32,000 nt of DNA from Candidatus Saccharimonadota bacterium (GTDB lineage: Bacteria; Bacteroidota; Bacteroidia; Cytophagales; Amoebophilaceae). Within the stretch, counting starts at the first letter, position 1; the number at the start of each line of letters is the position of its first letter. Both the position numbers and the translations under genes were made by a program. Positions 3,243-3,386 of this stretch are shown here, in pieces. The stretch covers positions 540,001 through 572,000 of the forward strand of contig NZ_OZ034918.1 of the NCBI RefSeq assembly GCF_964030745.1, written 5' to 3'. The notes beneath the pieces are model-generated. The model was not told the origin of the DNA and did no database searches. It saw nothing but the letters and a program-made list of their open reading frames with translations.

Positions 3243-3386
3243 AGACTTTTTTTGAAATGCTACTTATGCTCAGGAATTTGTAGGAGACACGGAGCGCAAA
3301 ACCGCAGCGTACTAGATGTACGTGAGGATTTAAGCACCGGATCGACGTGCAAATTACCAGCAGAAGTAGCGTTTCGAGAGAAGGCT
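3243..3386 (-). repeat. Diverged 144-bp PE copy spanning the ftsL-like 3' end and the ftsL-ftsI spacer
   Basis: It aligns end to end with the copy at 18417..18558. Shared blocks include accgcagNNtactagatgta and gaaNtagcNttt...agaaggct, and the termini are agac...aggct. The ORF tail GNLHVDPVLKSSRTSSTLRFCAPCLLQIPEHK* parallels the PE frame GNFGVEACLCSSNTSSMLRCSTALLLKIAHHK*. Confidence 0.7.

Follow-up and report, generated by a model that had tools for sequence, protein, structure and literature searches.

A palindromic element of the RPE-1 family at the 3′ end of an FtsL-like gene in a Cardinium endosymbiont

The ftsL–ftsI locus and the insertion in ftsL

The sequence analyzed here is a 32-kb stretch (hereafter the window, to which all positions refer) of the genome of the endosymbiotic Cardinium from Philonthus spinipes (icPhiSpin1), a member of the Bacteroidota. 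The subject of the analysis is the 3′ end of its FtsL-like gene, which contains a copy of a short palindromic element (PE) that recurs elsewhere in the window. Directly downstream lies ftsI, encoding a PBP3-type transpeptidase, and upstream are an M32 peptidase gene and recG; the same gene order is found in the Nabis and Sogatella strains. The product of the FtsL-like open reading frame (ORF) is a 100% match to the NCBI protein P0001. It matches Pfam family FtsL_2 (PF19579, Bacteroidetes FtsL-like division protein) with a score of 73.7 bits (the gathering cut-off is 24.6), and this match is confined to amino acids (aa) 36–116, with the C-terminal tail (aa 114–154) falling outside the domain.

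The relationship between the 3′ region of ftsL and the PE, which had been proposed in a preliminary description of the window, was upheld by statistical alignment. An nhmmer profile that was built solely from the five intergenic copies in the window matched the ftsL copy at 3377–3244 of the minus strand with E = 4.2e-15 (50 bits, profile positions 15–147 of 155) and the copy within ftsI with E = 5e-36, and the ftsL copy, used as a single query, recovered all other copies with E values of 1e-7 to 2e-12. The bounds of the insertion were set by DNA alignment with empty sites, which place it exactly between ATA/ATC (Ile) and AAATCTAAC. The empty site of the Oegib strain, for example, reads CCTCCTTATATCATC followed immediately by AAATCTAACCAG..., and in the window CCTCCCTATATAATA and AAATCTAACAAAG... 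are separated by 147 nt. Clean empty sites are present in five clade-A strains, Nabis, DF, Oegib and Sfur among them. The preliminary description had located the element at 3243–3386; the empty sites give slightly different limits (Table 1). The insertion comprises an element with the ends AGCCTTCTC...AAAAAGTCT and a 3-nt target-site duplication (TSD). When the pre-insertion site is rebuilt with a 3-bp duplication, it reads TAT ATA ATC AAA TCT (Y I I K S), which is exactly the sequence of the orthologues.

When the minus strand is read codon by codon, the last codons of the conserved core are ...(V)PPYII at 3386–3403. Beyond them, as had been described, the ORF continues through the element in its one frame with ~41 open codons, up to the TAG that the element itself carries; in the alignment, this stop shares a column with the TAG of the canonical, intergenic copies. 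The predicted tail, AFSRNATSAGNLHVDPVLKSSRTSSTLRFCAPCLLQIPEHK, shares 18 of its 41 residues, in an ungapped alignment, with the translation of the canonical PE in the same frame. It includes three cysteines, and its predicted tryptic peptides include FCAPCLLQIPEHK and TSSTLR. In the FtsL-like protein, these 41 element-encoded residues replace the nine ancestral C-terminal residues, KSNKENDLH, whose codons are still in frame beyond the insertion but are cut off by the element TAG. The displaced remnant contains and overlaps the ftsI start codon (3220–3222). Where the site is empty in clade-A relatives, there is an overlap of 14–58 nt between ftsL and the annotated start of ftsI; in the window, this overlap is gone, and the ftsI ATG lies 37 nt after the ftsL stop.

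Orthologues of the FtsL-like protein are mostly 115–120 aa long and end 3–10 residues past the PPYxI motif, without the tail; residues that precede their stop codons include ...YIIKSNKESDIH (P0005), ...YIIKSNQ (Oegib) and ...YTIKANKKSDPY (Sfur). In the empty-site strains Oegib, Nabis, DF and Sfur, the ends have the uninterrupted form ...PPYxI(K/S)xx... and overlap ftsI. The element thus accounts for the ~35 aa of extra length to which the preliminary description had drawn attention. The expectation that the tail would be absent from orthologues without a PE was borne out by the five clade-A strains with clean empty sites. The start of the tail is nevertheless not unique to this genome, as its first 12 aa are resembled in the Cardinium of Brevipalpus californicus (P0011), which also has an insert at this junction. 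With the exception of P0011, the few longer orthologues owe their length to an N-terminal extension or to fusion with ftsI. On a Cardinium-like Logan contig, ftsL reads through into ftsI as a single fused ORF (P0023, 252 aa). Conservation of the protein is lowest after PPYxI, where both length and sequence vary among orthologues. The tail itself has no Pfam or NCBIfam match, and in the AlphaFold2 model residues 109–154, where the alignment has no depth, have predicted local distance difference test (pLDDT) values below 50 and no secondary structure.

Table 1. Positions, strands and supporting evidence for the features of the window (TSD, target-site duplication; PE, palindromic element)
Feature	Position	Strand	Basis or remark
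FtsL-like ORF, 154 aa from TTG, 152 aa from ATG	3260–3724	−	ATG start as in NCBI annotation (P0001)
Conserved FtsL-like core up to VPPYII	3386–3724	−	Pfam FtsL_2, aa 36–116; orthologue comparison
Insertion, 147 nt: 144-nt RPE-1-type palindromic element plus 3-nt TSD (AAT/AAC, 2/3 matching)	3239–3385	−	empty-site alignment and nhmmer
Element-encoded C-terminal tail, 41 codons	3263–3385	−	codon reading; 18/41 identical to same canonical-PE frame
TAG stop donated by element	3260–3262	−	alignment column shared with canonical copies
Final 21 nt of insertion past the stop, in-frame reading HFKKSLT, now untranslated	3239–3259	−	codon reading
Displaced ancestral ftsL 3′ end, KSNKENDLH plus TAA	3209–3238	−	codon reading
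Antisense reading of ftsL element: NATYAQEFVGDTERKTAAY (3256–3312) and LDVREDLSTGSTCKLPAEVAFREKAII (3312–3392)	3256–3392	+	classical RPE-1 coding register with 1-nt slip at central TAG
ftsI (PBP3-type transpeptidase)	994–3222	−	PBP_dimer, Transpeptidase and PASTA domains (Pfam)
PE copy within ftsI, in-frame insert	1324–1470	−	RPE-1 sense register
Canonical intergenic PE, 142 nt	7821–7962	+	TSD ATG
Canonical intergenic PE, 143 nt	8294–8436	+	TSD ATT
Canonical intergenic PE, 142 nt	11365–11506	+	TSD ATA
Canonical intergenic PE, 142 nt	13938–14079	+	TSD ATT
Canonical intergenic PE, 142 nt	18417–18558	−	TSD TTT
Second repeat family, copy	8664–8877	−
Second repeat family, copy	13461–13773	+
Second repeat family, copy	29799–30111	+
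Duplicated blocks	24164–24341 and 24851–25025		around small paralogous ORFs 24266–24676 and 24944–25441
Repeated segment, ~90 nt	25670–25762 and 31592–31685		upstream of two other genes

Copies of the element and its family

The five canonical intergenic copies of the PE are 87–95% identical to one another, and the ftsI and ftsL copies are diverged. The 15-mer AGACCTTCTGCAAAA forms a terminal inverted repeat at both ends of the canonical copies and is found nowhere else in the window (9 matches, with 0.12 expected); the ftsL copy has the diverged terminal pair AGCCTTCTCTCGAAA / TTTCAAAAAAAGTCT. Perfect 3-bp direct repeats border each of the five intergenic copies (the probability of this by chance is about 2e-9), which implies transposition with a 3-bp TSD. 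At the genic copies, the duplications match at two of three positions (AAT/AAC in ftsL, TTT/ATT in ftsI), and of six copies in Cardinium DF two have a perfect 3-bp duplication and three more a 2-of-3 match. [quoted passage not shown] The element (142–144 nt) contains no transposase ORF, and no insertion sequence (IS) with matching ends is present in the window. On the same Philonthus Cardinium contig, an ORF with a weak match to IS5-family transposases (P0042, 147 aa) runs into a PE copy and is another example of a PE-derived ORF end. The canonical copies fold as a single long hairpin with energies of −50 to −57 kcal/mol (z −6 to −8.6).

Related copies are present in at least three Cardinium strains (PhiSpin, DF and Sfur), one of them inside ftsI of the Sogatella strain. 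A 21-kb locus of Cardinium DF (L028) contains six full PE copies and a partial one, with one copy inside nusB. Elsewhere in Cardinium DF (L003/L004, 2683–2712), a lone sequence resembling a PE end, AAGACCTTCTGGAAAACCTA, lies upstream of ftsL and may be the remnant of an old copy. In a contig scan of genomes, the PE core AATGGNAATTTTGGTGTNGAA gave 19 single chance matches (Flavobacterium and others) and none in Cardinium, so the source genome was evidently absent from the species representatives scanned or the motif is not conserved; a metagenome contig scan with CCGCAGNNTACTAGATGTANNTGAGGA gave 0 matches. The plasmid database, searched with the ftsL copy by blastn and tblastn, contained nothing significant, and four enterobacterial plasmid matches with E values of 0.1–0.4 were judged to be chance. 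With Rfam, only a tRNA (26383–26454) was found in the whole window at the gathering threshold, and a permissive search of 3150–3480 returned nothing, with no match at any PE.

The first indication of the family of the PE came from a word-indexed protein search with its concatenated reading frames, which gave two matches, one of them the NusB protein of Cardinium DF (P0041), named by NCBI 'palindromic element RPE1 domain-containing protein'; RPE stands for Rickettsia palindromic element. The same type of search with the antisense ftsL peptide gave no candidates. The NCBI pipeline already names a few Cardinium DF proteins 'RPE1 domain-containing'. The corresponding NCBIfam model, TIGR01045 (RPE1), has a length of 48 and a curated cut-off of 30 bits. 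In the antisense reading of the ftsL element, the two halves share one nucleotide at the central TAG; joined, they score 60.8 bits (E 8.9e-17, profile positions 5–45 of 48), and when each is translated directly the scores are 25.5 and 25.4 bits (E about 1e-5), at collinear positions of the profile. For comparison, P0041 scores 40.6 bits, the antisense peptide of the canonical PE 26.9 bits, and the FtsI insert of the window, taken alone, 25 bits. When a profile of the antisense peptides was compared with 1.84 billion cluster representatives, 176 matches were obtained at E<=1e-3, many of them short ORFs or segments inserted into long, unrelated proteins; those with names belong to Rickettsia (R. 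asiatica, R. helvetica and several endosymbionts), Candidatus Tisiphia, Wolbachia (flea wCfeT, wCori) and Cardinium DF. On the basis of these sequence comparisons, the PE is assigned to the RPE-1 family. As far as the literature could be searched, no paper linking RPEs to Cardinium was found.

The genic copy in ftsL is not simply a decayed canonical PE. In local BLASTP comparisons, it shares 72–76% aa identity over ~41 residues with RPE1 domains of Rickettsia/Tisiphia, whereas peptides of the canonical PE are 83–88% identical to copies from Cardinium DF and 62–67% identical to protein inserts of the flea Wolbachia wCfeT/wCori. At the DNA level, the ftsL copy has 60–65% identity to the canonical copies. 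It has a GC content of 46%, compared with 38% for the window. It forms a hairpin of −44 kcal/mol (z −5.8) on the sense strand and −63.5 kcal/mol (z −9.05) on the antisense strand, whereas the palindrome of the ftsI copy is decayed (z −2.0). The joint alignment has a consensus structure of 48 pairs, 12 of which keep pairing through changes on both sides, mostly from the ftsL copy. Random decay destroys palindromes, whereas in the ftsL copy the hairpin is kept by compensatory differences, so the two types would have split as elements before the ftsL copy landed. These features define the ftsL copy as a separate subfamily. The preliminary description was right in every element of its interpretation but missed both the membership of the RPE-1 family and the distinct subfamily of the ftsL copy.

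The orientation of the ftsL copy is opposite to the classical RPE-1 coding register, as defined by TIGR01045, and to the ftsI copy. Canonical copies are likewise open for ~41 codons in the frame of the ftsL tail, and the other two phases of the same orientation reach a stop after 13 or 1–2 codons. The length of the tail is thus a consequence of the phase of insertion, and the open frame needs no selection. A 69-aa ORF at 13854–14063 of the plus strand, which is probably spurious, ends in the PE copy at 13938–14079 and uses there the frame and the TAG that the ftsL tail uses, so both are intrinsic to the element. In ftsI, the element forms an insert of exactly 47 aa that separates KPINSS from VGVH and lies between the transpeptidase and PASTA domains. 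The opposite orientation of the two genic copies and the presence of PE-derived coding sequence in two adjacent division genes, both proposed in the preliminary description, are thereby confirmed. The ftsI frame is open through the element because a 1-nt central insertion removes the TAG and joins the half-frames. Among the strains compared, only cSfur shares this arrangement, with a homologous insert at the same site of ftsI and the same extra T (L025, 5091–5217); the site is without an insert in Oegib, DF, Nabis and the Brevipalpus californicus strain. The nusB copy of Cardinium DF (L028, 10636–10786, encoding P0041) is also in frame, and there an independent 1-nt insertion at the same central spot removes the TAG. 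Another Cardinium DF protein, P0045 (494 aa), consists of an unrelated hydrophobic, membrane-protein-like N-terminal part, an RPE1 segment and then the C-terminal NusB part of P0041; it is a chimera joined at the RPE, generated by recombination between copies or by misassembly.

The window also contains further repeats (Table 1). A second family of ~215–300 nt, unrelated to the PE and with copies that are 91–95% identical, has no Rfam match and contains short ORFs only. In addition, there are one pair of duplicated blocks and one short segment that is repeated ahead of two genes.

History and consequences of the insertion

The best explanation of these observations, to which we assign a probability of about 85%, is that the FtsL-like gene of the Philonthus Cardinium received, by transposition, a non-autonomous, MITE-like element of the RPE-1 family and that the new tail is a tolerated by-product. 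The element would have landed between the ...VPPYII codons and the last nine codons of the gene, in the orientation opposite to the classical coding register. Translation would pass from the FtsL core into the element, continue for 41 codons and halt at the element TAG, and the ancestral nine-residue end, in frame but untranslated, would now merely be a spacer that carries the ftsI start. The overlap between ftsL and ftsI would in this way have been turned into a 37-nt gap, with the start context of ftsI kept in the remnant. Attached to a periplasmic C-terminus of low conservation, the tail would be tolerated and essentially neutral, and would probably have been fixed by drift in an endosymbiont with a small population. 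Ribosomes that translate ftsL would melt the hairpin, and ftsI expression would therefore survive.

The analysis establishes the insertion and its boundaries, the membership of the family, the new frame and stop, and the absence of the insert from most orthologues. Several points nevertheless weigh against the explanation as a whole. Translation of the tail is a prediction from the ORF. A low pLDDT is expected wherever the alignment has no depth, so the apparent disorder of the tail is weak evidence. The score of 60.8 bits for TIGR01045 required a manual join over the 1-nt slip, and the halves alone are below the 30-bit cut-off. The likeness to Rickettsia RPE-1 is at the level of peptides. The TSD of the ftsL copy matches at only two of three positions, and a near-perfect hairpin inside a coding region could mean that something maintains it in place.

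The age of the insertion is bound up with the strain from Brevipalpus californicus. The ftsL of this Cardinium (cBcalN1; L001, 3334–3503, encoding P0011 of 142 aa) carries an insert of ~170 nt at the identical junction and in the same orientation, and its first 29 nt match those of the window copy at 20 positions in a fixed register (P about 5e-6). The tails accordingly start alike, with IAFSRNATSAGN in the window and IAASRRATLASP in the Brevipalpus strain, over the first ~30 nt or 12 aa. The rest of the Brevipalpus insert contains a short hairpin, AAATAGTTGCAAAAAACAACTATTT. As a whole, this insert is not a recognizable PE, as it has no profile match and its local alignment score was reached by 48 of 500 shuffles. 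The exact sharing of junction and orientation and the similarity of the starts would fit a single ancient insertion in the ancestor of clade A that persisted in the strains from Philonthus and Brevipalpus and was removed precisely in the other lineages. We regard this as possible but doubtful, as the Brevipalpus insert has no significant similarity beyond its start and the almost perfect hairpin of the window copy suggests that it is young. In addition, in a neighbor-joining tree of FtsI, a single gene, the Brevipalpus strain is placed as the sister of the remaining clade-A strains (bootstrap 80%), and PhiSpin clusters with Oegib (bootstrap 65%), which is empty at both the ftsL and the ftsI sites, so that at least two to three precise excisions would be needed.

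The sites shared between strains are either hot spots for independent insertion or the result of precise losses or of recombination of alleles among strains, and the single-gene tree cannot decide between these. A broader scenario, which we put forward only tentatively, is that RPE-1 is a cross-phylum MITE that circulates among co-resident arthropod endosymbionts (Rickettsia/Tisiphia, Wolbachia and Cardinium). It would have entered Cardinium at least twice, as a Rickettsia/Tisiphia-type element in ftsL and as a Wolbachia-like high-copy subfamily elsewhere, and would repeatedly occupy or precisely leave the same division-gene sites (ftsL in the Brevipalpus strain, ftsI in cSfur), in conflict with the strain tree.

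Instead of being a tolerated by-product, the insertion could have been retained for an effect on RNA, if the hairpin between ftsL and ftsI altered the coupling, stability or processing of the division-operon mRNA. The stability of the sense-strand hairpin given above and the replacement of an ancestral overlap by a gap, with the 3′ arm of the hairpin ending about 20 nt before the ftsI ATG, would be compatible with such a role. However, 126 of the 147 nt lie inside the translated ftsL ORF, where the hairpin would be opened by passing ribosomes, neither a U-tract nor a terminator-like site is present on the sense strand, there is no Rfam match, and a hairpin is generic to every copy of the family, all of which makes this reading improbable. 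An intrinsic terminator is ruled out, as no stem followed by a U-tract is present on the sense strand at the element.

Less probable still is co-option of the tail, in which the 41 residues would endow FtsL with a new function in periplasmic interaction or stability that selection maintains. The ORF that stays open over 41 codons and the similarity of the first 12 tail residues in two strains could be taken in this sense, and it has been argued for Rickettsia proteins that RPE inserts can be reconciled with fold and function (PMC10969869). Yet the open frame and the TAG are already present in unselected intergenic copies, the tail has no family match and is modelled as unstructured, most Cardinium strains are without it, and in the Brevipalpus tail all similarity ends after 12 aa. 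A chance resemblance or an error of assembly, such as a chimeric read from a co-infecting Rickettsia, could be suggested by the GC content of the ftsL copy and its greater similarity to Rickettsia/Tisiphia RPE-1 than to other Cardinium copies, but it can be dismissed almost entirely given E values of 4e-15 (DNA) and 9e-17 (protein model), two junctions of clean Cardinium sequence within one ORF, whose product is the same as the NCBI protein encoded on a closed contig of 1.09 Mb, and a second strain with an insert at the same junction.

Relation to known elements and significance

RPEs are a textbook example of selfish DNA inside protein-coding genes and have been regarded as peculiar to Rickettsia, apart from relatives in Wolbachia. 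The element RPE-1 was reportedly described by Ogata et al. in 2000 (Science 290:347) and 2002 (Genome Res 12:808). To our knowledge, no TSD has been described for RPEs, and the clear 3-bp duplications of the window copies set them apart in this respect. In other respects the window copies resemble RPE-1, being palindromic repeats of ~140–150 nt that occur both between genes and within ORFs. The ftsL and canonical copies form the single long hairpin of a palindrome of ~100–150 nt, and the ftsI copy is a classical in-frame internal insert between domains. The ftsL copy differs in that it is reversed and its TAG closes the ORF after 41 codons, with the C-terminus replaced rather than the host frame kept open, and in that its center is 1 nt shorter than a continuous RPE-1 frame implies. 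The host differs as well, since RPE-1 has been regarded as restricted to Rickettsia/Rickettsiales and Cardinium belongs to the Bacteroidota.

In the literature, RPEs are described as Rickettsia-specific elements that insert into ORFs in frame, with relatives in Wolbachia termed WPE (PMC3767692, PMC10969869, PMC4316617, PMC4898810). The WPE (Ogata, Suhre & Claverie 2005, Trends Microbiol 13:253, as cited in PMC3767692 and PMC4898810) is a precedent for protein-coding, RPE-like palindromes beyond Rickettsia, although Wolbachia still belongs to the Rickettsiales and Cardinium to another phylum. For Cardinium, reports of MITEs are limited to MITECca01 and its close relative MITECca02, both confined to cOegib (Halter et al. 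2022; PMC9769881). The former has a length of about 240 bp, derives from the IS982-family element ISCca4 and is far less often found inactivating protein-coding genes than located between genes or in mobile elements (PMC9769881). These MITEs share with the PE the character of a non-autonomous inverted-repeat element multiplied in a Cardinium genome, but identity of the PE with MITECca01 is ruled out by its size (142 nt), its origin (RPE-1, with no parental IS in the window) and its distribution (at least PhiSpin, DF and Sfur). ERIC, BOX and Correia elements and the MITEs of Anabaena are also small inverted-repeat elements whose internal open frame can fuse to a host ORF and provide a new protein end (PMC10969869). 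They are unrelated in sequence, and frequent tolerated insertion into genes is a hallmark of RPEs (PMC10969869).

The event at ftsL is ordinary for an element of the RPE type. Of interest are the new phylum of the host, the presence of two subfamilies in one genome with MITE-style evidence of transposition, and the unusual replacement of a C-terminus together with donation of a stop codon in an essential division gene. For annotation, this means that element-derived tails and differences in length are to be expected among Cardinium orthologues. The inverted repeats and 3-bp duplications provide a handle on the movement of the family, as they point to a MITE that would need a transposase producing 3-bp duplications. 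The ftsL case represents a second route of protein remodelling by such elements, in which the C-terminus is swapped and a stop donated instead of an internal loop being added, and in which two essential division genes that formerly overlapped are unlinked. Finally, the occurrence of RPE-1-type elements in a symbiont of the Bacteroidota indicates that the family crosses phyla, presumably within shared arthropod host cells.

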